Below, one piece after another: positions 6,909 through 52,100 of a DNA stretch of 64,000 nt. Origin of the DNA: Hormiphora californensis (Eukaryota; Animalia; Ctenophora). Every line of letters starts with the position of its first letter. The stretch's first letter is position 1. A program made the position numbers and the translations under genes. Where the stretch lies: the NCBI GenBank assembly GCA_020137815.1, contig CM035362.1, positions 6,014,001 to 6,078,000 of the forward strand, read 5' to 3'. Below the pieces are notes generated by a model, which made no database searches, was not told where the DNA came from, and was given only the letters and a program-made list of their open reading frames with translations.

Positions 6909-22432
<15,524 letters not shown>

Positions 22433-22665: not shown

Positions 22666-24132
22666 TCACAACAAACTGTTATTTAACATTTCTGAACATT
22701 TTACCTCGTGTCTTGCCCTCAACCTGGTGCACCTAAATGTTTTACTGCAGTTTCTACAGAGAAATGGTTTCTCCCCAGTGTGTATCATCATGTGTCTCTT
22801 CATACTACTTTTCTGTGAAAATGCCTTTCCACAGACCTCACATTTGAATGGACGCTCTCCAGTATGAACCAGTTGGTGTGTTTTATAATCGTTCTTTCGA
22901 TCAAACCGCTTCCCACAGTCCTCACATTGGAAAAGCTTAGTTCCACTGTGCCTCCGAAGGTGAATTTCTAGTACTGGTCTCGTCTTAAAACTCATCGGAC
23001 AAATATCACACTGGAACTCTCTTTTTGGGTGAGCAGTTTCAATGTGCTCGTTTAACTCGGATCTTGGTAATCGAACTCCACAATTTTTGATACGACAAGG
23101 GATGAAGTTATTGTCACTATGAAACACAAGACGATGTTGATCTAAATTTCCTTGACGAGGAAAGCTTTTTCCACACTCCTTACATTTGTATGGTTTGTAT
23201 CCACTGTGGGCCAGATGGTGTCGAGTAAGATCCGAAGGTTTTACAAAAGCCATGGGACAAACATCACAGAAGTGTTTTCTATCAGGATGGTCGTCTCGAA
23301 TGTGCTGATACAAGTCCGTCTCTGATGACTTCCAAACTGAACAACTCCTGATTTTGCACTGGAATATTTCAGCACTTAACTCGAGTCCACCATTAATTAA
23401 AGTAGCAGGTTCTTGAGAAAGGGATTGTTGGGGAAGGACTTGCAGAAGAGGGTGATTTGCAGATGCTGACTCAAATGCGTCTCCTTCACTCGAATCTTGT
23501 TTACTGCAATTATTATCCCCTCCAGTTAGGGCCAGGACACCTGCAGAATAAATTTACAATTAGATACGATAATCAGTATCAAAATAAAACCAGCGATACG
23601 TATAACAGCAATCCATAATTCTTGATACTATAAATATTGCCTATAAAAGACTAAAATTCATTAGAAATGATTTATACAGTCGGACCCCAATTTATACCGG
23701 AAAGCTCTGGAGAAAGGGTCTTGACTCTTGCCCGGTATATCGGGGCCAAATAAACTGTTAATTTCCTATTTCGGGGGAAGTTCATCCTGATCCCGGTTAA
23801 TTTTGGTGGCGCCGTCACCTTTCTAGCGGGTTTCGTTTTGGCCCGCTACGTGCGCGAGTTGTAAGGGTGACTGCATCACCAACGGTAAATTGGGGTCCGA
23901 CTGCAGTATAATAGTACCAAGGATTAGCTCGGTGAAAATATCACGCTCAAGACTAACTATTATCTGAGGAAACTGCACTTGATGCAGTATCATAAATTTC
24001 GCAGGGGGTAAACATCTCAACTTTGATGTCATTTTCCATAGGTTCGGATTTTAGAAGCGGAAGAATTTCAATCTTTCTATCAGTTTTCGTGACAGGCTCT
24101 TCTGAACTACCAGGTTTTCTTTTTGCCATCAT
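22666..24132 (-). CDS. C2H2 zinc-finger protein 1 of tandem cluster (2 exons)
   Basis: Exon 1 MMAKRKP...PLLKSEP...; exon 2 with CxxC...HxxxH fingers and HTGE(R/K)PF linkers (ORF 22666-23313 extended upstream in frame). Confidence 0.9.
23677..23903. mobile_element. Tc1/mariner-type MITE (relatives at ~38292-38436, ~43735, ~59765)
   Basis: ta-cagtcggacccc ... ggggtccgactg termini. Confidence 0.65.
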
Positions 24133-24291
24133 ATATACCCTGTATGAAGAAGGGAAAGTGTTAAATCAGTGTTATTGTCCTGAGATGTCACGACTTGACG
24201 GACAGAAAATAGTAATGGAAGGGGGAGGGGGAGACACAAGTTCAATAAGAAACAGACAGAAAAATAATAAATAGTGCATCAAAATCCTCAC

Positions 24292-24438
24292 TAGTGGAAG
24301 CTCTTACGGTTTTTTCCAACACATACGGCTCAAACTCTGCTCTGTGATTGGCTGAAACTTCCAGGAAGGGAAATTTCAGCCAATCATAGTACAGATTTTG
24401 AGCCGTGCGTGTGGGAAAAACCGTAAGAGATTCCACTA
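24292..24438. mobile_element. MITE between ZF genes 1 and 2
   Basis: tagtggaagctcttacggtttt / aaaaccgtaagagattccacta inverted ends. Confidence 0.7.
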
Positions 24439-24505
24439 CACCGCTTTCTCTGTCAATTCAGTTTTACAACTAAAATTAAAACCGTGTAAAGTATCAAACA
24501 AACAG

Positions 24506-26658
24506 TTACTTCTTTTCTAAACATTTTAACTCGTGAATATGCCTGTTATCGGAACGAATAAATTGTTTACTGCAATTACTACAGGAAAATGGTTTCTCAC
24601 CAGTGTGAATTCTCATGTGACTTTTCATGCTACCTTTTTGAGTGAATTTCTTTCCACAGACCTCACATTTGAATGGGCACTCACCAGTATGAACCAGTTT
24701 GTGCCTTTTATAATTACTCGATTGACCAAACGTCTTCCCACACTCCTCACATTTAAAGGATTTAATTCCATAATGTATCTGTTGGTGATTAACTAAGTTG
24801 TAATTTGACGTGAAACTCATAGGACAAATATCACACTGGAATTTTCTTTTTGGGTGTACAGTTTCAATGTGCTCGTACAACTCTGATTTAGGTAATCTGA
24901 CTCCACAGTTTTTGACACGGCAGGAGATAATATTGCTATGAACAAGAATATGATGTTGATTTAAGTGATTTTCACTACCAAAGCTCTTTTCACACTCCTT
25001 ACATTTGTATGGTTTGTATCCACTGTGACTCAGATGGTGTTGAGTAAGATTAGAAGGTTTCACAAAAGCCATGGGACAGACATCACAGAAGTGTTTTCTA
25101 TCTGGATGGTCGTCTCGAATGTGCTGATACAAGTCCTTATCTGATGACATAAAAACCGTACAATCCTTGATTTTACATTGGAATCCTGAATTTTCACCAT
25201 TCCCTTCGACAAACCCCATAGAAATCGGTTTCCCTCGTTGATTTAATTCACTGCGAAGATGTTTTAGCTGAAAATTAATTTGACTTGAAGACTCGTCGAG
25301 ATAAGCTTCTGGAACTTGATTCATTTCAGCTCCTTCGATGTTTTCTATCTTCCCAGTAGATTTCATGCAGGGTTCTGGATAGTTGGGAGTGCTTTGCTGT
25401 TGAAGGATCTGTTGTTGCCGGTGAAGAGGGGGATGTGCAGATTGAGGCAGTTGTGTTTCTTTTGGTGTTGACTCGACTTTATCCAATTTAGAAATCGTAT
25501 CAACTGAAAATAAAAAGACGAGAATTAGAAATTCACCGACTAACAAGATTTTTTTGCACTATGTATCCATAGCGCTATATTTCCCTGCCATCCTAAGTCC
25601 TGTACTTCTGACCAAAAAACCTACATTCAATAAGATTCTCCGTGTGTTGTCTGAGGTGGGCATCCATGTCTGTCTGACTGCGAAAACTGACCACACATAA
25701 GCGGCAGGTGTATTTCTTATCACCTGCAGCAAAATTTTTAGCATTTATGATGTTAACGTGAAAAATGAACAAATTAACTGGGTAATTTGATCCCTAATTG
25801 TACAATGTTTACCTGACACTTCCCCAACCAGGTCCTTATCTAGGTCTTCATCTTCATCAATCTCCTCCTCCATGTAGGCCTCACCCAGGTCCTCATCCTC
25901 AATAATCGTAGCTACCCAGCCGCACCTGTACTATCTCCTGCAGCATAGTGTTACCAGTGAGTAATTGCGTGCGCCAGAATGCATGTTAATAATTTCCTTT
26001 GTTGCATCAACAAAGAGTGATTCTAAAGATTTATAAGGGAGCAGACTTTGTTACTATGTATAACGGTGGACAGACGAACAATTTTAGTTAACCCCCAAAA
26101 TTACTGATTTCTAAACCCTGAATGATCTTTTCAGCACGTGCGTGCTAAAAAGATCATCAGGACGAATGCTTTCGTCATTCATCCGGGCAGGGAAAAAATT
26201 GATGAAATGAATGACATTCGGCTCACAAACTCACGAGAAGTAGAAGAAATATCAGGAACTATAGAGTCATAGTAAAAAGGATCAGAGTTCTCCATCTTTA
26301 CAGGATCCATTGCCATTTCATCATCCAAACATCCATCCTCCAATTGAATAACTTCAGGGGTCTCTACTTGAATCCCGGCATCACTTGACCCGGTTTGAGT
26401 TCCAACTTCCACCAACATGGCTGTTTTAACAAGTCTATACCCTGAATCCAAACGACCACTACCTGATTTTCCACATCCATCACATATGAATACAATGTTG
26501 TTTTGTTCTGTGATTGATATAAGGCAGGGTGAGTTTACCACATGCTTGATGTCATCTTCCATGTACATTGGTTCAGTTTTCAGAAGGGGAGGAATTTCAA
26601 ACTTTCTACCAGCTGTTGATGATACGAAGCTACATTCACTTGGTTTCAGGTTTGCCAT
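24506..26658 (-). CDS. C2H2 zinc-finger protein 2 (extra internal exons)
   Basis: ORF 26179-26658 (IPPLLKTEP motif), an internal finger exon near 25600-25722 (CRLC...HLRQH), and finger array 24506-25500. Confidence 0.85.
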
Positions 26659-26829
26659 GATTTAACCTGCATGGAAATATTATTTTTTAAACAGTGAATG
26701 TGTTATTCTTTTGGACAAAAAATAGTAATAGAAGGGGGAAAGGGAGACACAACTACAAGTTCAATAAAATATACACGGGAAAATAATGAATAGTGCATCA
26801 AACACGTTAAAAATATTTAAATCATAAAT

Positions 26830-29754
26830 GAGGGACCTAGTTCCATAATGGTATATCTGCACAAAGTGCATTTCGAGATAATCGCGAAAAACCAATTTTT
26901 AAGATTTTTATGATGTTCAATCGTTCATAACTTTTTCTGTATAAGTTAGACGCATAAAACCTATATCATTCTGCAAAAGGTATTTGTTTTGGCAACATTT
27001 TGCACCTATGCTTCCCTAGATAGCACCTTTCAGTAAAAAATATCTGGAAATATTCCACAAAATGGGACTAAAATTGCGGTATAACTGCAGTTATACCATG
27101 AAAATTGGTCATTTTTTCATGGTATAACTGCAGAAAATAACCGCCGGAAATCATCTGTTCCAGAAGAAGGCATCTAAGCTTCATACTTTCACCAGTGATG
27201 GTACCCTCTGCAAGAGTCAGATCGACTATATTCTGGTCAGGAGTAAGTGGCGGAACTCTCTGCGGAACCTTGAGGTGGTGGACTCTTTCGGGGATGTCGG
27301 CTCAGATCACCGTGCAGTACTGGGTTTCATACGGCTGAGTCTCCGGAAGACAAAACGACCCAAGGGCCAGATCAGATATGACTTCACTCAGCTGAAGGAG
27401 GATACTGATTTACAGGACGAGTACAGTGTAGAGGTGAACAATCGTTTTGATGTTCTGAAGCAGGATGTGGAACTGAATGACGGTTCTGGGAGGTACGGGG
27501 CATTCGTTACCGCTGTCACTGAGACTAACAGTCGTTTGCTCCCCCGCAAGAGGAAACGAACCCATGACACAGCGATGGATGACCCTAGAGTTCAGACAGA
27601 CCGCGAGGAGTTATTTGTGGCAAAAAGGGCTTTCTTTCATGACCCCACGGAGGAGAGTAGGTGTGTGGTCAGTGAGAAGAAGGAGGCTCTTAGTGCTACA
27701 CATGCCCTGGTGACTGAGGAGATTGTTAGTAGGAAAATAAGGCGTGTGGAGGCGGCCACTGATGAGAGGAAGAGTAAGGAGGCTTGGGATCTTATTAGAG
27801 ATGTTACCGGAGGTGGTCGTCCTGGTGGTCTTGTGGAGGGTGGCAGCGCGGAAGGAAGGTTAGAATCGTGGAGGAACCATTTCTCTGGGATACTGGGCGC
27901 CCCGCCTGATGTCCCTGATGAGGACCTGACAGTTCACACGGTTAGTGAGGAACTTCCCATTTCTACCGACCGGTTCACTGCAGAGGAGTTTGATACTGCT
28001 AGGAGGTCGATCAAAGAAGGCAAGGCGTCGGGTGATGATGGTGTTGCACCGGAGGTGTTGAAGAGAGGAGGAGTGAGTGAGATCATGCTGGACTTCTACA
28101 ACGATGCTCTGGAGAATGGTAGCTTCCCGGATCAGTGGAGGAATCTCCTTATAGTCCCTGTTCCTAAAAAGGGCGACCTCACCAAAACTGGGAACTACAG
28201 GGGGATCTCTCTTACTTCTGTGGCTCTAAAGACCCTTAATAAGATTATCCTTAACCGGTTACTGCCCCACGTTGAGCCACTTCTGAGGGACAACCAAAAC
28301 GGTTTCCGCCCTGGACGTTCAACAACGTCCCACATCCTGGCTCTGCGGCGGTTACTGGAAGGTGTAACTGAGCGTAAACTTACCTCAGTTATACTATTTG
28401 TTGATTTTAAACGGGCCTTCGATTCAATACACAGAGGAACCCTTATGCGTATCCTGAGAGCCTACGGGATCCCGGAGAAGCTAGTTAGTCTGATCGAGTG
28501 CTCCTACCGGGACACAATCGCCCGGGTCAAAACGGAGGATGGTCTTACTGAAGCCATTGCTATTCTGGCAGGCGTACTGCAGGGGGACACTCTGGCACCA
28601 TACCTCTTCATCATCGTCATCGATTACGTCATGAGGCAGGCTCTGGAGGGTAAGGACTTTGGCTTCACGATCACCAGGCGAAGGAGTCGTCGTCATCCCG
28701 AGGTGAAGATCTCTGACACCGACTATGCGGACGATCTGTCACTGCTAGCCGATACGATCGACGAGGCTCAGGAGTTTCTTCTGAGTCTGGAGAGTGCTGC
28801 TGCAGCGGTTGGTTTACATCTCAACGAGGGGAAGACCAAGTTTATGGCCACTGGATATGAGGAGCCCTCCCTCGTGACTGCGAGTGGTAGGCAACTGGAA
28901 TGGGTGGATGACTTCGTCTACCTGGGTGCTCATCTCCGGTCCACAGAGCACGATTTCAATGTAAGGAAGGCCAAGGCCTGGGCGGCTTGTCATCGCTTGA
29001 GGAGTGTATGGAAGACTGACATGAGGAGGAGTTGCAAGGTTAATCTGTTCAGAACAACAGTGGAAGCCATACTACTCTATGGAGCAGAGACCTGGACACT
29101 TACAGCTAGTCTGGAAAAACGCCTGGATGGATGTCATAGTAACATGCTGAGAATGGCACTGGGTATCAATTGGTGGGACAAGGTGCGGAATGAGGACGTC
29201 TATCAGAATATTCCCAGGGCATCTGAAACTGTTCGAGCTCGCAGATTAAGGCTGGCTGGTCATATACAGCGCCATCCCGAGCTTACTGCTCACCAGCTTC
29301 TTTTCTGGGAGCCGGACAGAGGGAATCGTAGCAGGGGGAGGCCCCAGAAGACTTTCCTTAAGCAAATCAGGGACGATACTGGTCTTGCATCCGATAACGA
29401 GATAAAGGAGCTTATGCAAAACCGGGAGCTGTGGCGGACTGATATAGTTGCTCGGACACGGAAGCCGCCCTAAGTCAAGTAAGTCATAACTGCAGATATA
29501 CCACAGATATACCATGTATATACCAGCTATATATCTTCAGATATACCACAGTTATAACAAAGTGTTGCAAAATTTTGGTATTTCATAATAATATCTTTAG
29601 ATATACCATTTTTTTGTGTTCCCGAGGTCAGATCTTCACCAAAATTGGTCAAGAGGTACATTAGACCATCCCAAACATGCTCCTATAGGCTCCTTATAAG
29701 GATATCTCCATTTTGGTATATCTGCACTTATACCATTATGGAACCAGCTCCCTC
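26830..29754. mobile_element. Non-autonomous TIR element (GAG...CTC termini, 4-bp TSD; Sola-like) hosting the RTE
   Basis: gagggacctagttccataatggtata / tataccattatggaaccagctccctc, flanked by aaat on both sides. Confidence 0.65.
27135..29485 (+). mobile_element. 5'-truncated RTE/RTEX-like LINE inserted in a DNA element
   Basis: 732-aa ORF (SDH, NYRGISL, QNGFR, GVLQGDTLAP, YADD, RSRGRP); taagtc/aagt repeat tail; 11-bp TSD ataactgcaga at 27124-27134 and 29486-29496. Confidence 0.92.
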
Positions 29755-29802
29755 AAATACTGCTTTCTCTGCCAATTACTTTTTACAACTAAAAATAAAA
29801 TC

Positions 29803-30964
29803 CTACAAAGAAAATGGTTTCTCCCCAGTGTGTATCATCATGTGCCTCTTCATACTACTTTTCTGTGAAAATGCCTTTCCACAGACCTTACATTTGAATG
29901 GACGCTCACTAGTATGAACCAGTTGGTGTGTTTTATAATGACCGATTTGAGTAAACGTCTTCTCACACATCTCACAAGCAAAAGGTTTGATTCCACTATG
30001 TACCCGCTGGTGTTGATTCAATTCCTTATTAGTTTTGAAACTCATCGGACAAATATCACACTGGAACTTCTTTTTTGGGTGTGCAGTTTCAATGTGCTCG
30101 TACAACTCTGCTTTAGGTAGTCTAACTCCACAGTTTTTAATTGGGCACGAAACAATATTGCTATGAACAAGGCTCTGGTGTTGATGTAACTGATGTTTAA
30201 GGACAAAGCTTTTTCCACACTCCTTACATTTGTATGGTTTGTATCCACTGTGGGCCAGATGGTGTCGAGTAAGATGAGAAACTTTCTTGAAAGCCATAGG
30301 ACAAACATCACAGAAGTGTTTTCTATCAGGATGGTCGTCTCGAATGTGCTGATACAAGTCCTTCTCTGATGACTTCCAAACTGAACAATTCTGAATTTTA
30401 CACTGAAATAGTTTCCGGTTTAGTACATCACAGTCCAGTAAAGTAGAAGGTTTTTTAGAAATGGATTGTTGGTGAATAACTCGTTTACATAGGGAAAGAG
30501 GTGGATCTGCAGTGGCTGACTCTTCTCCTTCACTAGAATCTTGTTTATTGGATTTCTCACCTCCAGTTTGGATTGGAACACCTGTAGGATAGATGTGATA
30601 ATCATAATTGAATATGAATCCAACAAGGCTTTAAAACAATGATTCATAACGTTTGATAATACAAATAATGTTAATATAATATGTGTAGGAATACTGAAGA
30701 CTTGAAATTATGTTATAAAACTTCCCAGTCTTCAGTAGTCCATTGTTCAAATACCAGGTATAAATATCACCCCCAAAACTCACCATAATCTGAGGAAACC
30801 ACATTTGATGGAGCATCAGATATTTGGCACGGAATAAACATTACAGGTTTGATGTCACTTTCCACATATATTGGTTCGGTTTTTAGAAGGGGAGGAATGT
30901 CAAACTTTCTACCAGTTGTCAATGAGACTGAATTACTAGATTCACCAGATTCCAGGTCTGTCAT
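29803..30964 (-). CDS. C2H2 zinc-finger protein 3 (last finger truncated)
   Basis: Same two-exon layout as its paralogs; ends HTGEKPFSL* where paralogs continue into another finger. Confidence 0.85.
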
Positions 30965-31220
30965 GATGTAACCTACGGGAGAAGAGGACTTTGAAACAGT
31001 GGTAATTGCCTACAAATAAAATTAGAAGGGAGGGGAGGGAGGAAATAAACACAAAGTCAATAGACGGTACATAAAACAAGTGAAAGTTAAGAACTTGACA
31101 TTTAACGTCAAAACGTTAAAAGACCACCACAAACATTGTCTTCGCCCAATTCACCTTTTAAAATTAAGTTGCTGTAAAAAGTTGATAAAAATCATATTGT
31201 AATAGTCAATACTACTTTAC

Positions 31221-32457
31221 TCAACAATTAACCTCGTGAATAAATCTTTCAGAAGCCCGACTAAATGTCTTTCCACATTTACAGCAATGAAAGGGCTTCT
31301 CCCCAGCGTGAATCCTTATGTGCCGATTCAAGTGACTTTTCTGAGTAAATTTCTTTCCACAGACCTCACATTTGAATGGATGCTCACCAGTATGAACCAG
31401 TTTGTGTCTTTTATAATTACCAATTTGAGTAAATTTCATCTCACAAACCTCACATTTAAAAGGTTTGATTCCACTATGTACCCGCTGGTGTTCATTCAAT
31501 TCCTTGTTATTTTTGAAACTCATCGGACAAATATCACACTGGAACTTCTTTTTTGGGTGAACAGTTTCAATGTGCTCGTACAACTCTGCTTTAGGTAATC
31601 TAATTCCACAATTTTTGACAGGGCATGAAACAATATTGCTATGAACAAGGATCTGATGTTTATGTAACTGATGTTTATGGACAAAGCTTTTTCCACACTC
31701 CTTACATTTGTGTGGTTTGTATCCACTGTGGGCCAGATGATGTGCAGTAAGATGCCAATCTTGTTTGAAAGCCATAGGACAAACATCACAGAAGTGTTTT
31801 CTATCAGGATGGTCGTCTCGAATGTGCTGATACAAGTCCTTATCTGATGACTTCCAAACAGAACAATCCTTAATTTTACACTGAAATAGTTTAACACGTT
31901 TGATACACAGAATCATCCTTGTAGGTTTTAGTTCAGTTTTAAAAGTAGGATGATCTTTAGGAAGGGATTGCTGGGGAATATCTCGTCGTCGATGGGAAGC
32001 GGGTGGATTTGCAGTGATTAACTCTCCTCCTTCACTAGAATCCTGTTTATTGAATTTCTCACCTCCAGTTTGAATCGAAACACCTGTAGGATAGATGTGA
32101 TAATCATTATTGCAAATGGAACCAACAAGGCTTCAAAACAATGATTCATAACGTTTGATACTACAAATAATGTTAACAAAGCACAACTGAAGACTTGAAG
32201 TTATGTTATAAAATCTTCCAATCTTTAGTAGTCCATTGTTCAAATACCAGGTATAAATGTCACCCTCACAACTCACCATAATCTGAGGAAACCACATTTG
32301 ATGGAGCATCAGATATTGTGCAGGGAGTAAACATTACAGGTTTGATGTCACTTTCCACGTATATTGGTTCTGTTTTCAGAAGGGGAGGAACTTCAAACTG
32401 TCTACCAGTTGTCAATGATACTGGATTACTAGATTCACCAGGTTTTTTATTTGCCAT
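31221..32457 (-). CDS. C2H2 zinc-finger protein 4
   Basis: Exon 1 in ORF 32266-32457 (VPPLLKTEP); finger exon in ORF 31221-31916. Confidence 0.9.
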
Positions 32458-32889
32458 GATTTAACCTGCGAGAAAAAAGAACTTTAAAACAGTGGTAAAT
32501 CCCTGCACATATAATTAGAATTGGGAGGGGAGAGAGGAAATAAACACAAAGTCAATAGATAGAACATAAAAAATAATTGATATTTAACCACCATATATAA
32601 ACACAATTTCTTCGCTTAAATTCATCTTCATCTTTTAAAGGTTTGCAAGATACACAATAAATATTAAATATTTTCTTCTTTTTGTCGTATAGGAAAATAT
32701 TCAAAACATGGCGCTTTCCATAGAAGATAAGTTTTAGGTATCTTGTTATAAAATTAAATCTTTGTCAAATGTTCATATCATTAAAATCATTACTCTTCTC
32801 CTGAACAAGTTACCTCATGAACACGTCTAACAGAAGTAAACAGCCAATCAGAACTCGTTATTTAGGTCACGTGACTGGTTATCAGCCAA

Positions 32890-34040
32890 TCAGGGACCAG
32901 TATTTCCTCCCGAACAAGTTACCTCATGAACACGTCTAACAGAAGCTTGATTAAATTGTTTCCCACATTTATTACAAGAAAAAGGTTTCTCCCCAGTGTG
33001 TGTCCTAATGTGATTTCTCAGGTGACCTCCTTCAGTAAATGCCTTTCCACAGACCTCACATTTGAAAGGGCGGTCTCCAGAATGAATCTTTTTGTGTTTG
33101 TTGAAGCTAGACGATGATGCAAACTTCTTACCACATTCCTCACAAGTGTAAGGTTTAACTCCACTGTGAGTTCTACCATGAGCATCTAATTCTTGTTTTC
33201 TTTTAAAAGACATAGGACAAACATCACACTGGAACTTCTCTTTTGGGTGTGCAGTTTCAATGTGCTCGTACAACTCTGCTTTAGGTAATCGAACTCTACA
33301 ATTTTTGACAGGGCATGAAACATTATTGCTATGAATAAGGATTATGTGTTGATGCAAATGATGTTTAAGGACAAAGCTTTTTTCACACTCCTTACATTTG
33401 TGTGGTTTAGATTTACTGTGGGCCAGGTGATGTCGAGTGAGTTTCGAAAGTTTTTCAAAAGCCATGGGACAAACATCACAGAAGTGTTTTCTATCAGGAT
33501 GGTCGTCTCGAATGTGCTGATACATATCTGTATCTGATGACTTCCAAACTGAACAACCCATGATTTTACACTGAAATACTTTAGCACGTTTGTTATTGTT
33601 TTGTTCAGATTCAGAAGTGGCAGGATCCTTACTAAGAGATTGCTGGGAAGAAGTTGGATTTGAAGTGGCTGACTCTTCTCCTTCACTAGAATCTTGTTTA
33701 TTGAATTTCTCATCTCCAGACTGGATCGAAACACCTGTTGGATAGATGTGATAATCATTATTGAAAATGAAACCAATTAGACTCAGTAACAATGATTTGA
33801 TCACCATTTATCTACAACATTGATAATGAAAATAATTCTGATGAAAAGGCTACCGAAGACTTGCAGATATTATAAAATCTTCCAGGCTTTAGTAGACCAT
33901 AGTTCAAAAACCAGGTATAAATATCACGCTCAAAACTCACCATAATCAGAGGAAAGCACATTTGATGGAGCATCAGATATTGGGCAGGGAGCTGTCAATG
34001 ATACTAAATTATCAGATTCACAAGGTTTTAGGTCTGCCAT
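32890..34040 (-). CDS. C2H2 zinc-finger protein 5 (exon 1 internally deleted; stop codon supplied by a MITE fragment)
   Basis: Finger ORF 32890-33807. Exon 1 (34040-33940) lacks the PPLLKTEP block. Confidence 0.85.
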
Positions 34041-34412
34041 GATTTAACTTCGGGAAAAGATAGCTTAAAAAAGTGGTAATAAGTAAACAACCAATTAGAA
34101 CTGGTTATTTAGGTCACGTGACTGGTTATCAGCCAATCAGGGTCCAGTATTTCCTGATTTGGCCGGTTCCTGAATTCAGGAAAAGATAGCTTAAAAAAGT
34201 GGTAATAGACTTCACATATACATTAGAAGGGAGGGTAGGGAGGAAAGAAACACAATCTCAATGGAAAGCACATAAAACAAGTTAAAGTTAAATACTTGAC
34301 AGTTGTCAAAAGACCACCATATAATAAGCACTTTCTTTCCCCTTTCAGTTTTATAACTTAAAAAGTAAATTACTGTCCAATGTTGATAAAAATCATATCG
34401 TGATAGTCGATA

Positions 34413-35638
34413 CTAATTTCCTGAACATTTAACCTCGTGAAGACGTCTTTCACAAGCCTCAATAAATGATTTCACACACTTACTGCAAGGAAAGGGTTTT
34501 TCCCCAGTGTGTATCCTCATATGCCGCTTAAAGTTATTATCTAGAGCAAATTTCTTTCCACAGACCTCACATTTGAATGGACGCTCACCAGTATGAACCA
34601 GTTTGTGTCTTTTACAAGTACTGATACGAGTAAAAGTCTGACCACACTCCTCACAAATAAAAGGTTTGATTCCACTATGAACCTGCTCGTGTCGAATCAA
34701 TTCGCTGTTTGTGTTGAAACTCATCGGACAAATATCACACTGGAACTTCTTTTTTGGATGTGCAGTTTCAATGTGCTCGTACAACTCTGTTTTAGGTAAT
34801 CTAATTCCACAATTTTTCACTCGGCACGAAACAATATTGCTATGAACAAGATTTTGATGTTGATGTAATTGATATTTATGGACAAAGCTTTTTTCACACT
34901 CCTTACATTTGTGTGGTTTATATCCACTGTGCGCCAGATGGTGGTCAGTAAGATTCGAAGCACACTTGAAAGCCATGGGACAAACATCACAGAAGTGTTT
35001 TCTATCAGGATGGTCGTCTCGAATGTGCTGATACAAGTCCGTCTCTGATGACTTCCAAACTGAACAAATCATGATTTTACACCAGAATACTTTAGCACGT
35101 TTGTTATGGTTTAGTCCATCACAGTCCAGTAAAGTAGAAGGTTCTTTAGAAATGGATTGTTGGTGAACAACTCGTTTACATAGGGAAGGAGCTGCAGTAG
35201 CTGACTCTTCTCCTTTAATAGAATCCTGATTATTGAATTTCTCTCCTCCAGGTTCAATAAGATCACCTGTAGAATAGAGGGAGGGTCAAACAAGGTAAGA
35301 ATAGAATTGATAATCATTATTGGAAATGAAATGAACAATGCTGGAACACAATTATTTTATATTCAGTATTCACAACCTTTGATACTACAAATAACACAAT
35401 TTTAAGACTACTGCAAATACCAGGATAAATATCACACTCAAAACTCACAATAATCTGAGGAAACCACATTAGATTGAGCATCAGATATTGGGCAGGGAGT
35501 AAACATTACAGGTTTGATGTCACTTTCCACATATATTGGTTCGGTTTTCAGAAGGGGAGGAATTTCAAACCTTATGTCAGTTCTTATGTCAGTTTTTTTG
35601 GCCTTTTTTGATAAAAGATCACTCCTTCTTTTTGCCAT
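34413..35638 (-). CDS. C2H2 zinc-finger protein 6
   Basis: Exon 1 MAKRRSDLL...IPPLLKTEP; finger ORF 34413-35072. Confidence 0.88.
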
Positions 35639-36243: not shown

Positions 36244-42487
<6,244 letters not shown>

Positions 42488-43108: not shown

Positions 43109-46100
43109 TTAAGCAGAGATGCATTCAAGTGATGGAACAATATCTATCTCCCGACACTTGCACCAACATCCGGGAGTCGGGCACACCTTGTGTTCTCTGC
43201 AAGAAGGGGGAAATGAGTATCATATATGCATGTAATCATGGAAACTAGTGGGTAACCAATAAATATCAGTAACTATGGTAACCAATTGTAACCATGGTAA
43301 CCAATTGTAACCTTGGTAACTAGCGGATGACCAGTTGGTAACCGATTGTAACCATGGTAACCAGTTGTAACCATGACAACTTAGTGGGTAACCAGTTGTA
43401 ACCAATTGTAACCATGACAACCAATTAAGACTCACCTAAACCAATCAGCCATGTGATCTGAGTGGCAGCCATGTCCACACGCCAGACACCACACAAACCA
43501 GTCACCAAGAGGGTTGGTCCGTGTTATAACTGTGTTTTGCTGTTTCCGCTGTTGTTGCTCGTGACTCATGAACCGTTCAGGGGGTCTTTCAGCTGAATAT
43601 TAGATTTAGGGAGGGATTATATTGGGGATTATATTGGGGGATGTTCAGGGGGTCTTTCGGCTGAATTATATTTAGGGGGTTATATTGTGGGTCGCGTTCA
43701 GCTGAATATCATTAGGGAGGAGTTATTTGTTGATTTAACGGGATGCTCGGTGGAAAGGGTTTTGCCCGGTAAATCGGGGTCTGACTTATTAGTCACGTAC
43801 TCCAGTCACGTACTTCAGTCACGTACTTCAGTCACGTACTCGAGTCACGTACTTCAGTCACGTACCTTTAGTGTTTTGGTTAAACCTCGAAGTAGTCCCC
43901 AGATGATACATGCACAAAGAGCACCGGGGTAGTGGTTTCTTACAGTTAGTAGAGCAGCAGAACCTCTTATCAAAGGGTCTAACCAGGGACTGTGCCTGAC
44001 CGTTATGCATTGGAAGGGTTCGCGGATCTGAAGTAAAAGGAAGATAATTAATCCAACAATTTATTTGGGTACGAGCGGTACGAGGTCCCCCCTGTTCTCT
44101 CCCTGCTGCGCTGTTCTCTCTCGCGATGTAAGAGAGGGTAGTACTGAAAGCTTTCATAAGAATAATAAAGTGGTCATATAACTAGAGAATTGAGAACAGC
44201 TTAACTTACTGCGGATTGATTTTTCGCACTTGTAACATCGCACACTTGAGATATGGTATGGAGGTTCAGCGCGAAGCTCTGGTAACTTCTTCACCTAATG
44301 AAAAATATGAATTGTGAGAACATGATGAGAACATGATGAGAACATGTACCATCACGCTACCAACCTTAAGAAACTGCGCTATTCATTGACGAAATTACCT
44401 CCACCCCCGAGTTTTAGTACCCCCCCCCCCATTAGAACATACCTTGTTCTGGTAGAGAGAACGCTCAATCCACATCCGTCGGATATCTGAACATGATGAG
44501 AAATTAAACATCCATCTCACCAGACAAATTAGGTACATAGCTTCAGTAAAATCTAACACAACGGACCAACTTGCATTGTTGAAGCGGAGTTTTCAAATGT
44601 TTGCAAGGTCAGAGAGAAAAAACAGAGAAAATATTATGGTACATGGTATTGTTCTTACCAAAGAATCGAAGGTAGTTGTTCTTGACCAAGTTACTCAATT
44701 TATCTTTGCTAAAATCAACATATTTATTGGAAAGGGTCAGTGCCAGACAGACGGTTTGGACATCTGATGTCCGGTCGAGATACTCTTGAAGGAGCGCTGT
44801 TAGTGTCTTGCTTTGATTTTGAATACCTGGAGGTGGATTTAAATTACTAATTAATCGACCAATTAAATATATTTTTGCAATGTTGGTGGATCTAATCTGG
44901 GGTTATTTATAAGGGTGTCAAATTGACACTGCCAACAGCTGTCAACCACACCCTCTCTCATCTTAGCTTGGGGCCCCGGCCCCACCCCTGGGGGGGGGGG
45001 GGTCCAGCCCTAAAAAAAGCTAAGCTAACGGCCAAAATCAGGGTACCTTTAGCTTTTTTTAGCTTTTTTTAGCTTTTTTTAGCTTTTTTTAGCCTTTTTT
45101 AGCTTTTTTTAGCTTTTTATAGCTTTTTTTAGCTTTTTTTAGCTTTTTTAAGGCTAAAAAAGCTAAAAAAAAGCTAAAAAAAAGCTAAAATTGAGTTTTT
45201 AGTGGATTCATATAGGTTCGAATCCCGCTGACGCCAAATTTTTTAAACTTTTATTATAACGTTTCAAACTTTTCAACACTACTTTAAACAAATTAATTTG
45301 AGGATCCGTTTTGCTGCCCCTCGCTAATCCTTCTGAGACTTCTGTTTATCCCTCTCCTTAAAGAAAAGACAAGAGAAGACGTGTCTGGTTTTTCTAAGTA
45401 AACAGATCTCAGAGGACCTCGTTGGGTTATACCAAGGACGCCAAGACTTGCAAGGAACGGTTCCTCGCGCCTCTATTTACAGGACAGGATGTCGGGTGTG
45501 GCTACCCATGATGTTATTATGTGCAGGAACGATATGGAGGGTAAGTTGCTCGCCACGAGCTACTCTGATAGATGTAAGGGTGCCAGTATTTTGCAGAGCA
45601 TTAAGGATGATGCAGTGGAGCCTCCAAGTGGAGCCTCCAAAGCGGTTTTATGGACGATGGTCAAGGAACTATATGGATTGTTACCAGAAACACGACGCAT
45701 CTCTACCCACTCATCTGAATCTGTGACATCATTCACTGCTGACGACTTGAGAGATACACTGGATAAGCTGAAAGAGGATCTTCTGAGCACACTACCGGAT
45801 CTGGTTGCCCCCAAGGTTAGCAAGATCTTAGCTCCTAGCAGTGACCAATTGGCAATTCATGCTGTGAATCGCACTGGCTCGGCACAGGAAACTGTGACCC
45901 CTGTGACTCCAATTAAGAGGTATCTGACTATCAAGGATAAAGGTGAGGAAGGACCTATGTGTGAGAAGAAGTGGACTACTGTCGTGAAGACAAAGGTGGA
46001 GAAAGCATTGAATAAGATTCCAGTCCTAGATCTTTCAGTCACCAAGAGGAGGACAAATCTTATGTTTGAGACCGATGAACAGTTGGAACAGGCGAAAGAA

Positions 46101-49100
46101 GTTCTTTCACCGTTCCTTGATGTTTCTCCCGTAGTGGAGAAGGAGAAGAAAAGAGATCCTCGCATCATGATCAATGATCTTGACCAGGACCTACTGGAAA
46201 AAGATCGCCTTCTGTCAGAGATTGTCAGTGATAAGAATGAGTCTGTGAAGAGACTAGTTGGGGAGGGTCACCTGGTGAAGGTGGTCCATGTAAACAGAAC
46301 AGGAAGATATGCAGTGTTCCAGGTCTCTCCAGAAGTGAGGAAGGCGATATCGGAAAGGAAGGACAAGCTATTCTTGAAACTTCGACAGCATTCAGTGAGG
46401 AACAGGTTTTATGTCACGCAGTGTTTTCACTGCCAGCGCTTTGGCCATGTAGCAGGATCCATCTACTGCCCAAACAAGGATAAATCTCCGGTTTGTGCCT
46501 TCTGTACGGGAGATCATGACACTAGGAGTTGCCATGCCAAGAAGGAAAATGTAGTTAGCAGGATGAAATGTGTCAACTGTGATCATGGAGGAAGCAGAGA
46601 GGACAAGCGCCATGCTCAAAGTCACCCAGCCTCCAGCAGTATGTGTCCATTCTATGTAAATGCTAAAGGAAGACTCATGGAGAGTACCAGTGGAGTAACG
46701 AAGCAGGAAAAAAACGTGTACCTGACGAGGGCATGGGAGGATCTGAGAGGAAAACGTCTTGGAGGATTGGCACACTAAACGTCCACTCAGTTATGAATAA
46801 GACGTCAGGTGTAATTACACACTTGGAGGAAAAAGGATGTGACATCTGCTTGGTACAGGAGACTTATCTGAAACAGAGTGACACAGCTAAACTTCAGGAG
46901 ATCAGAGACTATGGTTGGAATATCTTCTCCTCGCCTAGAGCGGAACGTTCAGGAGGTGGAATTGGAATCTTGTACAGGGATGGTGTCAAGTTGAAATACA
47001 CTCCGGTAAAAGCCAAGTTTAAATCGTTTCAAGTCCAGGAAGCCCTTATTGGAGGAGGAAAAGATGTGACGAGGCTATGCAATATCTATAGACCTCCGTA
47101 TACTGGCAAGGCACGGTTTACGGAAGCCCAGTTCCTGGATGAGTTTACCGATTATTTGTCAGAGTTGGTCTGCAAAACGGGGAACCCTATCCTGATGGGG
47201 GACTTTAACTTCCAGGTTCAAGATACTCAGAACTTCTATGCGAAGAAGTTGCTTGGACTACTCGACTCTCTTGGATTTGATCAGCGGGTCCCACTACAAC
47301 CTACTCATGTTCGTGGTGGTACTTTGGATCTGCTTCTCTGCCAAAAAGACAGATATTCTAAGGTTCAATCAGTTGAAGTATTTCCTGACGGAACGACCTC
47401 TGATCATTTTCTTGTATTGGCGGAGCTGTGTATTGAAACTGTAGCAAGTGAATACAAGACTCGTGAAAAAGTGGACATGTACAGAGATTTCAAGGCTGTT
47501 GATATAGAAATACTTCGATGTGCTTTTAGGAGTGTGGATTGGAGTGAAGCGATGGAATCTGGATCAGCTGAGGAGGTTTTGTGTATTTATATGAGGAAAC
47601 TTGAGGAACTTGTGGATAGGACTGTCCCGTTGAAGAGGAGAAAGAAGAGAGGAGCTAAGCTGAGGCCATGGAGAGATAATCCAGAGGTGCGTCAAGTTCT
47701 TCGTCAGCGGCGGAATGCTGAGCGAGCCTGGGAGAACAATAAAACCAGCGTCACGAAGAAGCAGTTCAATGAACTCAAGAGGCAGTTTGGGCGTGTTGAC
47801 AAGGAAGCGAGGACAAACTACGTCAAGGAAGACTTGGAGGAGTCCAGAGATGACCCCAAAGCACTTCAAAGGAAATTGAACCGTCTACTTGGTAATACTG
47901 AGACCTTTATGCCTGAAACCACAGATAAGCGGAGGTTAGCGGATGACTTTGCTGACTTCTTTGTTGGAAAAGTTGATAAGATCCGGTCTACTGTTATTGG
48001 AGAGAAGAATCTGAGGACTAAGAGGAACCCTATTCATCAGACACCCGTCTGTTGTTTTGAGGAATTTGAGGAAGTTTCCCCAGAGAAACTAAAGAGGATA
48101 ATCAAAGACATGCCAGACAAGACATGTGATCTTGACCCTATACCGACTTGGTTAGTGAAGGGGTGTATGCATGAGCTAGCTCCAGTCTTGTGCAGGTTTA
48201 TTAACCTATCTCTTGGATGTTCCAGTGTTCCTGAACTTCTCCAGCAAGCTTTGGTGTTTCCAACGATTAAGAACCCTTATGGCGATAAGGACACTTTGAC
48301 CAATTATCGGCCAGTCTCCAACCTATCTTTTGTCTCCAAGCTTCTTGAAAAGATAGTTCTAGAGCAGCTCAACTCGTATCTTAATGAGAACGAGTTACTA
48401 AATAAGCATCAATCAGGTTACAGGGTGAATCATAGCTGTGAAACCCTACTGATGGGTATGTTTGATGATCTCCTTCGGGATATGGATGAAGGAAAGGTCG
48501 CAGGCCTCTTTCGATTAGATATGAGCGCCGCTTTTGACACAGTGGACCATGGAAAGCTGCTAGAAGTTCTTGAAGAACGGTTTGGAGTGAAGGGTTCTGT
48601 CTTGGATTGGTTCGCCAACTATCTACAAATGAGGACTTATCGGGTAAACGTGGAAGGGGAACTTTCGAGGATTGTCTCTCTGATTTGTGGAGTTCCGCAA
48701 GGTTCACTGCTTGGACCTGTGTTGTTTTTACTGTATGTGGAGGAATTGCAAGATTTGGTCAAACCGTATGGCTTAAGGATTAAACTGTATGCTGATGACT
48801 CGCAATTGTACATCAGCTTTGTTCCAACTGATGAGGAAAACTGGAAACTGGCAAAGAAGAGGACTGAGGAATACTTGTTAAGTGTGAAAGAGTGGATGAG
48901 TGAGCACTGGCTAAAGTGCAATGAGGCAAAGACTGAATTCCTGCTGTTAGGCAAAAACAGCGCCCTGGATAAGATGGTCTATCAGCCCACTGTGGACTTT
49001 GGTGGAGTGGAGATAAGCCCAGTGGACTTTACGGGGAGTACAGGGAAAACACTAGGAGTGTTCCTTGATAGCAACCTCTCTATGGAGAGGCAAATCAACA

Positions 49101-52100
49101 GTGTTAAGAGGCAATGTGGTTTGTTGTTGAAGAATCTATGGCAGGTAAACCGGTGTCTAGATAGATCGACAAAGATACTCCTTGTTAAGCAGCTCATCAT
49201 TTCAAGACTGGATTATTGTAATATCCTTTACCATGGCTTACCTAAGAAGCTTCTCAACAGCCTTCAGAGAGTCTTGAACTCGTGTGTCAGATTTGTTTAT
49301 GGCCTACACGGTCACCAAGACACCTACATGCCATACTTGAAAGAATTGCATGTTCTTCCTGTGGAACAACGTGTCACGTTCAAAGCATGCCTTATGGCGT
49401 ACAAGATTGTACATGGATTGGCCCCTGACTACCTGCAAGATCAGGTCCCTGTTGATGATGGACTTCATGTGATCCGGGCTACTAGAGGAAATGCTTGGCC
49501 TGATGGCCTCAAGCTGAAGTACCCTAAGCTATCAAGTGTCAATGCGACTTCCAAGTTGAGAAGAAGACGTCCGTCGGTTTACCTGCCTGAAGTCTGGAAT
49601 AGGCTTCCCCTTGATCTGAGAGCTGTTGAGTCTGTGGAATCTTTCAAGTCGAAGCTCAAGACTAGTCTTTTCACTGAGGCTTTTGGTGAGACTGGACTGT
49701 CCTCTTAACACTCTCCTTCTTGCTGAGGTATGTGCTCTAGCTGGCACCCGTTTTTTATTATTTTTCTGTATTTAAGCTCGTGGCGAGCAGAAGTGTGAAG
49801 CATAAATTGGGGTTTTTCATAGCACGAGTGTTTTTCTGTGTTTCCAATATACGGACTTTTATATCAATTTTTAGAGTTCCAGGACTCTAACTCAGTCTGT
49901 TATGTAATCAGTCACCGATAGTTATGTGAGCCGATAGTAATGTGAGCCGGTGTAATTTTTCTTTATTATTTTTTGTTCTACTAGAGTACCCGTTTGCTGG
50001 GAACCCGTGACCTGGTAAATGGTAATTTATCCTCATATAACCGGTGACATTTGTGTTTGATTTTTAAAAGATAATTTGTTTGTTCCTTAGAGCAATGAGT
50101 CTCATAGTAGGAGCGGTTAGATCAGCACGTGCAGAAAGTCGCGCGCCACCCTAATCTCAGGTTACTCTCACGGCTTCATTTTGCATCCAATCCAAAAGTG
50201 ACCTTCATCAAACCTGTAGATCTCCTCAAGGAGAAGCGAAAACTTGAGGGACATTTCTTGATAATGATTGGATGCGACCTCGAGGAGCTATGACAATGCG
50301 CAAAAAGGGGTGGCATGCGACTTTAACCACGTGGTGATCTAACCGCTCCTACTATATCATACACCTTGGGTTTTTGAAAAAACGGCCATTACAATTTTGG
50401 TGAGGCGGGTAAATCATTTACTGTAACGCGCGAATTTTCCCAAAAAAGCGCTGCTTTTCTACGCCGCGCGCGGAACCTAGAATTACGCGCGCAGTGTAAA
50501 ATTTTAAAATTCATTGCATTGAAAATTTCCTCGCGTTTTATGTCGCCAAAAAAAAGTCGACGAAAAATTCCAAATTCGTGAATTTAGAATTATAAGAACT
50601 CCGGTCAGTTCTCATCTTGCCAATGCGTTTTCCGGGAACCCCTGGCCAAAGGACATTAAAGTTCACATAACGACCAAGTTTCATATCGATTGGATAAGAT
50701 TTTGGGTGGCTACGGTGAAAAATATCGTATTTTTGGCATTTTTAACTTTCCCGACGCGATTTACGACCCTTAAACATTGAGTTACGGGAAATCGCTATCA
50801 TGTAAAATGAAGTTCAAACGATTCTCTTTCCCCACTATTGCGTTAGTTTTTTGATTTAGAGCCGTTTTCAGGGTCTTAGAAGCGTTTGAAAAATGTAAGT
50901 CTTTTTGTCGCAATGACGTCACCCCGTGACGTCACTGCTATAAAGATCGGATCAAAAATCTGAGCCCGTACTTACATCCGCCTTGGTCCAAGGTACCAGT
51001 GTACAAATTTTCAGGGGTCTAGCTCAAAAACTGTGGGAGGAGTTTGAAAAACCAATTAACGGACAGACTGACTAACATTATGGAATTTATTATATGGATT
51101 AGGGATAAGTTGGCGAGGTCTTACCAGTATATTAACCGTTCAGATCATCCTTCAGTGACAGCAGCAGTTCCGCTGCTCTGTCCCTGTCGGATATGGGCGG
51201 AATATAAACATAGTTATTATTATTATTATTATTAACGTTTTTTGAACTTTTTTAAAACTATTTTTATCAAATTTGAATAATATTTTTATCGAAAAAATGT
51301 CTCCAGAAAATGGCAGTAGGGGGATACAGAAATTGCTATGTATGGACATAAACGGTAGATTATGGTAAAAAATGTGCAGGAAATGAACAAATGCAGTCAA
51401 TAGACGTCCGGAAGGATGAAAATTTAATGGAAAAGTGTCAAGATGAATGCTGAAAAAACATAAAAAGTAGGGCTAAAAAAAGCTAAAAAAAGCTAAAAAA
51501 AGCTAAAAAAAGCTAAAATAAAAAACGCTATCGACCAAAATCAGGGTACCTTTAGCTTTTTTTAGGGCTGGACCCCCCCCCACCCCTAGAATTTGATCGT
51601 CTCCAAACACACACAAACACACACAAACACCCGGACACACACGCATACCAGTAAGTATAACAGCCCGAATGTTTCCCTCTGCTATCTCCCTCTTCATCAG
51701 CTCCTGCAGGAACCGCGTCAGCTTGGAGTCAGGGAGGTATCGGCATCCAAACAGGATCCTATCCTCGAGGAGTAGTTCAGAATCGTGGAGGATCTCAGTG
51801 TATGCACCCTCCAGGGGACCCTGTATTGGAGATAATAGTTTAAAGGGACCCTGTATTGGAGATAATAGTTTAAAGGGACCCTGTATTGGAGATAATAATT
51901 TAAAGGGACCCTGGAGATAATTATACTGTTAGAGGGGGGTAAATTTGTCGATTGGGGAAGTTTAGTGGTTGATATGAATGATGAATCTGAGACACGCTTT
52001 TTGTTGATCGAAAGTACTAACTAACATTTATTTATTGACAGCTTTTCTTACCTCTGCTTTGAGGAAGTTAAACATGGCTCTTACCTCTGCTTTGAGGAAG

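Follow-up and report, generated by a model that had tools for sequence, protein, structure and literature searches.

Ctenophore LINE retrotransposons that begin with the host spliced leader

The 64-kb window, by which we mean the whole stretch of DNA analysed here, contains a full-length LINE whose first bases are a copy of the ctenophore spliced leader. This leader-headed start is not a one-off: it is family-wide, and is shared by other LINE families. Comparison of the sequences leads us to favour a lineage-wide habit: RNA that already carries the leader likely serves as the template for these LINEs, and trans-splicing likely supplies the leader anew in each round. A LINE has to restore its 5' end every time it is copied, and the solutions known to us are internal promoters, or read-through transcription combined with a ribozyme. 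Renewal by host trans-splicing, if true, would be a further solution, in an animal and common to unrelated families.

Results

The leader copy and the element behind it

Positions 45261-45302 of the window (forward strand) agree at 42 of 42 nucleotides with nucleotides 3-44, i.e. the last 42 of 44, of the ctenophore leader printed for Hormiphora californensis (PMC8527503). The 42-mer recurs without a mismatch in the leader-RNA gene repeat of a metagenome locus, L012. The identification of the 42-mer as a ctenophore spliced leader, which the initial annotation had made, is thus confirmed by alignment to the published leader and to the L012 gene exon. It is the sole leader match of at least 14 nt within the window. 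The leader copy is 76% A+T and contains a single AG, at its very end and in a GAG context; the A/T richness and the lack of any other AG are compatible with an outron. The bases immediately after it are GATCCG, and the GT donor is missing there, as first noted.

The element that follows is summarised in Table 1. ORF1 and ORF2 are both open. A Pfam search of ORF1 gave no hit, while ORF2 matched an endonuclease family at its N-terminus (PF03372, E = 8e-13) and a reverse transcriptase family (PF00078, E = 1.6e-28). Self-comparison of the window revealed no terminal direct repeats (LTRs). An 8-nt duplication, TAACGTTT, is found at 45257-45264 and 51233-51240. Taken alone this octamer is weak, since the two strands of the window together have it seven times; it counts as a target duplication because it is positioned exactly at both ends of the element. 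The left copy overlaps the first four nucleotides of the leader, and therefore the insert could start anywhere in 45261-45265 (5' microhomology). With its endonuclease and reverse transcriptase, simple-repeat tail, target duplication and lack of LTRs, the window element is a full-length APE-type LINE.

Three details of the original description need amending. The candidate duplication said to bracket the element is indeed present at both ends, but its left copy shares four nucleotides with the leader, and the tail spans 51214-51234. The element was also called an intact two-ORF element, which holds for the reading frames but not for the 3' UTR, where a later insertion of 1143 nt is located. Copies in the sequencing runs X9 and X5 skip this insertion (joints 49953>51097/51098). 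The inserted sequence (49954-51097) is a high-depth composite repeat; it contains an inverted repeat (50104-50151 / 50308-50355) and shows nested skips.

Table 1. Coordinates of the leader-headed LINE and of its surroundings in the window
Feature	Position	Strand	Remarks
Intron of MIOS (GATOR2 subunit) holding repeat and LINE	44827..51648	-	borders by eye from GT/AG beside coding sequence
Left part of host repeat receiving the LINE	44994..45256	.	terminal inverted repeat at about 44994-45025
Left target-site duplication	45257..45264	+	last 4 nt common to leader
Genomic copy of ctenophore spliced leader	45261..45302	+	without the leader's first A; only AG is terminal
LINE 5' UTR	45303..45488	+	186 nt, 47% GC, no upstream ATG; aligns with L008 from first base
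ORF1	45489..46778	+	429 aa; three conserved Cys/His zinc-knuckle-like motifs near C-terminus
ORF2	46733..49708	+	991 aa; APE-type endonuclease and reverse transcriptase; 46-nt overlap with ORF1
3' UTR	49709..51213	+	final ~90 nt alignable to 3' ends of relatives L008 and L005
Later insertion in 3' UTR, composite repeat	49954..51097	.	1143 nt; other copies skip it
(TTA)n tail	51214..51234	+	
Right target-site duplication	51233..51240	+	
Right part of host repeat	51241..51581	.	inverted repeat at about 51551-51581

Genomic setting

The LINE lies antisense to its host gene, MIOS, which is on the minus strand, and there is no evident source of read-through transcription. One listed joint in X1 (45244>51398) connects the flanks of the host repeat without the LINE. 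This joint runs across the site without the leader, and the flanks at ten other loci (see below) are unrelated. The idea that the leader is part of the host repeat is thereby ruled out, and the 42-mer belongs to the LINE, as had been proposed.

In locus L012 (positions 1-1945), a ctenophore leader-RNA gene and a 5S rRNA gene of the same orientation share a 778-nt tandem unit, and GTAAG follows the leader in the former. Neither the upstream sequence of the leader gene nor its GTAAG intron adjoins the window element, which has GATCCG after the leader and unrelated sequence before it; insertion into the leader gene is ruled out by these flanks. The 3' flanks of the window copy and of L005, L008 and L015 differ from leader-gene sequence as well.

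NeSL, SLACS, CRE and CZAR elements have a restriction-like endonuclease after the reverse transcriptase and insert into the leader-RNA gene, with gene sequence on both sides. The window LINE is like them in its adjacency to a leader, but has an APE endonuclease, N-terminal in ORF2, and sits in an unrelated repeat without leader-gene flanks. The initial annotation was therefore right to separate it from the leader-gene-targeting NeSL, SLACS and CRE elements.

A single template switch, an insertion beside a leader gene or a chimeric assembly could also put a leader in front of one LINE. Chimeric assembly has been raised for similar cases in Schistosoma (PMC5832876), and hundreds of genomic leader copies exist (PMC8527503). 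We regard explanations of this kind as highly improbable, and already largely refuted by the target duplication at both ends of the element, by the finding of this junction in three DNA studies as well as at ten loci of three assemblies, and by element flanks that lack the leader gene's upstream sequence and GTAAG intron.

Other copies of the family in public sequencing runs

Contigs of six public runs were compared with the window: X1, X5 and X10 (DNA), X18 and X22 (RNA), and X9. The comparison of the whole element used X1, X5, X9 and X22. The comparison of the junction (45281-45430) used four of the 22 listed runs, comprising 268 + 51 + 39 = 358 DNA contigs from X1, X5 and X10 (three studies, two species labels) and the RNA run X18.

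In X1, 34 contigs diverge from the window before 45261, and 22 + 22 after 45302/45303. Divergence at the leader borders implies that many genomic leader copies have other neighbours, and X1 loose ends match the flanks of the leader gene in L012. At the junction, none of the 17 loose-end rows from DNA falls at the LINE's first base, 45303 (358 contigs, three DNA runs; contigs drop rare variants). Where rows record divergence on the upstream side, the letters concerned come from the leader, from variants of the family, or from microsatellites that flank truncated copies. The 5'-truncated copies in microsatellites have their junctions at 45334, 45372 and 45401, which demonstrates that foreign junctions are detectable by contig comparison. 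Thus, where the initial annotation had allowed for a one-off event if only the window copy carried the leader, the leader start recurs across copies, and no contig from the three DNA runs has other sequence before the LINE body.

Abundant pieces cross from the 5' UTR into the leader, with depths of 2372, 384 and 257 in X5 and of 2256 and 677 in X10, among the pieces listed (25 of 359). The depth-257 piece has 11 differences and hence represents another subfamily. The junction comparison held 22 leader nucleotides only, and so no piece meets a bridging bar of 31 letters on each side. Variant letters are listed at none of these 22 positions versus four places in 128 nt of the UTR, which is too few for a test.

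Among the RNA runs, X18 (oligo-dT) yielded one contig that joins 26 leader-side nucleotides to the 5' UTR and the start of ORF1. This contig is compatible with a leader spliced onto the RNA and with one encoded in the genome, because the leader is longer than the 31-letter words of the contigs and the RNA library may contain DNA. Depth in X22 was confined to three of 30 bins, essentially the leader alone, with the LINE body almost without cover; this result speaks neither for nor against a spliced leader.

Leader-headed elements in seawater metagenomes

Metagenome contigs were scanned for an exact 33-nt piece of the leader, a search in which drifted or absent leaders cannot appear. The 18 matches fall in 17 loci: six are host-mRNA-like, two belong to the repeat of leader-RNA and 5S genes, and ten head LINE-type elements. 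Leader scans of viral contigs and prokaryote genomes gave no matches. The host-mRNA-like matches have a long ORF directly after the leader, four of them with Pfam host families, and start at most 17 nt from the pattern. They come from four assemblies, none of them with a LINE match, and could be RNA or retrocopies. The ten LINE-heading matches come from three assemblies. Nine are LINE-type; the tenth, L014, is probably so, given its PHD-type lead and a 5' motif in common with L015 (0 of 2000 shuffles). Metagenome contigs may be a consensus of many copies, which makes their 5' ends uncertain.

Six of the elements (L002, L004, L005, L008, L011 and L017) are relatives of the window LINE, with 33-60% identity in ORF1 and 48-68% in ORF2. 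The ORF1s of the second group (L009/L015, L010 and L014) have no similarity to that of the window. L010 encodes a LINE endonuclease in addition to its dissimilar ORF1. L015 has ORF1 only and a (TAA)n tail, and its predicted fold matches human L1 ORF1p (E = 2.6e-7); L009 is its relative. No solved structure was matched when the L015 family was searched by sequence, and a target duplication was looked for in L015 and none was seen. The stretch L015:462-1600 is a complete leader-headed ORF1-only element with 14 relatives in the protein collection, most of them on contigs of 1-1.3 kb, and we take it to resemble HAL1-type elements.

The first 45 nt after the leader in L009, L010, L014 and L015 contain an upstream ORF of 1-4 codons, followed by a common C-rich/G-rich motif with the potential to fold into a hairpin in L014 and L015. 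An acceptor-like TTTYAG hexamer immediately follows the leader in three of the four (L009, L010 and L015). L014 is without it and may have been joined at the TTTYAG site itself.

In a tree of ORF1 with 35 rows (proteins shorter than 360 aa excluded), seven members have known 5' ends, all of them leader-headed, and these are scattered from tip to root. An ORF1 search in viral contigs returned one weak match only (L018, 31% over 68 aa), which was disregarded.

These data bear on a scheme in which each family is maintained by an infrequent source copy that has a promoter of its own and an ordinary outron, the leader-headed daughters being dead ends comparable to processed pseudogenes. Such a scheme would account for perfect leaders without any use of a GAG acceptor, and the TTTYAG hexamer directly after the leader in three of the four second-group elements counts in its favour. 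However, the 358 contigs from three DNA runs contain no foreign sequence before 45303, which is not proof, since rare variants are dropped. Moreover, new source copies arise by retroposition only and would be leader-headed themselves, and the leader-headed state extends across the whole ORF1 tree. We consider this scheme quite unlikely.

Conservation and clipping of the leader

At four-fold degenerate sites the window family is 26-37% identical to its six relatives, and the leader is exact. The 60 nt after the leader are 44-69% identical (shuffle mean, 43%). For these elements, an exact leader beside saturated neutral sites excludes neutral inheritance and leaves renewal or strict selection, with 33 nt of the identity being forced by the search. 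Ten nucleotides are unforced, and over these, agreement with the leader gene extends in the 11 elements to 9, 7, 8, 9, 10, 9, 9, 2, 8, 5 and 8 nt. The first base of the leader is missing in 10 of the 11, from which an end that is not renewed would be expected to erode. The combination of 2-10 unforced matches and a missing first base is what clipping of a complete template at each insertion would produce. None of the 11 elements has a second leader relic above shuffles in the 300 nt downstream. Given that there is no second, decayed leader, the last AG of the leader itself is the one that any re-splicing would have to use.

GAG is a rare splice acceptor context, which counts against re-splicing at the terminal AG of the leader. 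Three host acceptors or candidates are of the CAG, TAG and TTYAG types (two by eye). The hexamers TTTCAG and TTTGAG occur in the window at 0.91 and 0.90 of expectation, respectively, which is silent on their use as acceptors.

The poor acceptor is one of several points in favour of a leader that is no longer renewed, having been taken up once per lineage and now serving, under selection, as a 5' module encoded in the genome (an internal promoter or a translation signal), as proposed for dinoflagellate relics. The junction lies within about 1-3 nt of one place across the window clade, promoter motifs borne by a leader have been proposed (PMC5585692), and trypanosome LINEs are reported to use an internal promoter and to give unspliced RNA (PMC1874656). 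Against this, several independent captures would be needed, one in the window clade and others in L009/L015, L010 and L014, whose ORF1s are dissimilar. Each captured leader would also have to stay exact even as neutral sites saturate and the first base goes missing from 10 of 11 copies. We therefore judge this account to be unlikely.

A possible cycle of leader renewal

Renewal of the leader by trans-splicing could proceed as follows. The genomic copy would be transcribed from an internal, leader-borne or flanking promoter. In the transcript, the copied leader, A/T-rich and with a single terminal AG, would act as outron and acceptor, and trans-splicing would add a new capped leader exactly where the old one ends. 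The leader-bearing RNA would then be the template for target-primed reverse transcription by ORF2, which would stop 0-8 nt short of the cap. Every new copy would receive a slightly clipped, otherwise perfect leader, and there would be neither 5' erosion nor tandem relics. The proposal that the template RNA was trans-spliced, already made in the initial annotation, gains from the identity of the leader and its recurrence across copies and families; renewal by re-trans-splicing is what we infer to be the best explanation for leaders that are identical and nearly full-length.

A more far-reaching version, which we advance tentatively and think rather doubtful on present sequence evidence, is that unrelated ctenophore LINE lineages have given up their 5' promoter. 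With the copied leader as splice acceptor, trans-splicing would then turn any read-through transcript into a capped, perfect unit-length RNA, and most of the hundreds of unexplained genomic leader copies would be these elements. The promoter-independent life cycle suggested in the initial annotation is of this kind; the antisense position of the window copy in MIOS, the GAG context of its only leader AG and a 186-nt 5' UTR with space for an internal promoter leave it conjectural.

Discussion

Judged by its sequence features, the window LINE probably belongs to the CR1/L2 group of the Jockey superfamily. It is like other LINEs of this group in having two ORFs, an APE endonuclease and reverse transcriptase, a zinc-knuckle-like ORF1, a short-repeat tail and 5' microhomology, and its ORF2 has what we take to be L2-like motifs. 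Known members of the group are generally described as starting with their own internal promoter, whereas the 5' end of the window element is the host spliced leader. No clade names are attached to the homologues listed, at least 120 in number. Candidate type I features of ORF1 are the three conserved Cys/His motifs, together with a weak zinc-knuckle match in the relative L011. As described in the available text of PMC4120745, a type I ORF1 combines RRM and CCHC, and the type is not clade-specific.

Copying of trans-spliced RNA into DNA is known from dinoflagellates, in which retrogenes carry leader relics (Slamovits and Keeling 2008, as cited in PMC3229502 and PMC5585692), and re-splicing at the AG inside the copied leader has been proposed there (PMC3229502, PMC5585692). 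According to the available parts of these sources, recycling in dinoflagellates concerns host genes as passengers and leaves tandem, decaying relics; the ctenophore leader, in contrast, is found on mobile elements and is single and exact, with no relic. In Schistosoma mansoni, six leader exons merged to transposable elements have been described, and trans-spliced, retro-transcribed elements were suggested, with chimeras as a possibility (PMC5832876). The available text of that report contains no junction or family analysis. Hydra also combines animal transposable elements with trans-splicing, at the RNA level only in the available text, with leaders on about 30% of transposable-element Iso-Seq reads (PMC12220107). 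Our literature search, which fell short of most subscription papers and of Repbase notes, found no account of leader-headed LINE families or of a renewal cycle. There is likewise no leader-headed LINE in the available portions of PMC12460157, PMC8629364, PMC10161547 and PMC7986045.

Leader-headed LINEs offer an explanation for the genomic leader copies counted in PMC8527503, 718 in Hormiphora californensis and 491 in Mnemiopsis, for which the available text of that paper gives no origin. Genomic leader copies distort gene annotation. The leader allows the 5' end of a full-length insertion to be placed exactly.

Other features of the window

The window contains a further ORF with a reverse transcriptase (27128-29473; 781 aa), which is 25% identical to ORF2 of the leader-headed LINE and has no leader match nearby. 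Another LINE copy, at 38517-40038, is 5'-truncated, ends in a (TTA)n tail and is 94% identical to the leader-headed family of L004. At least six C2H2 zinc-finger ORFs form a cluster on the minus strand (22666-35285), and a homeodomain ORF is located at 15186-16226. Near the 3' end of MIOS, a plus-strand gene has a Sushi-like exon at 41546-41755 (weak Pfam hit).
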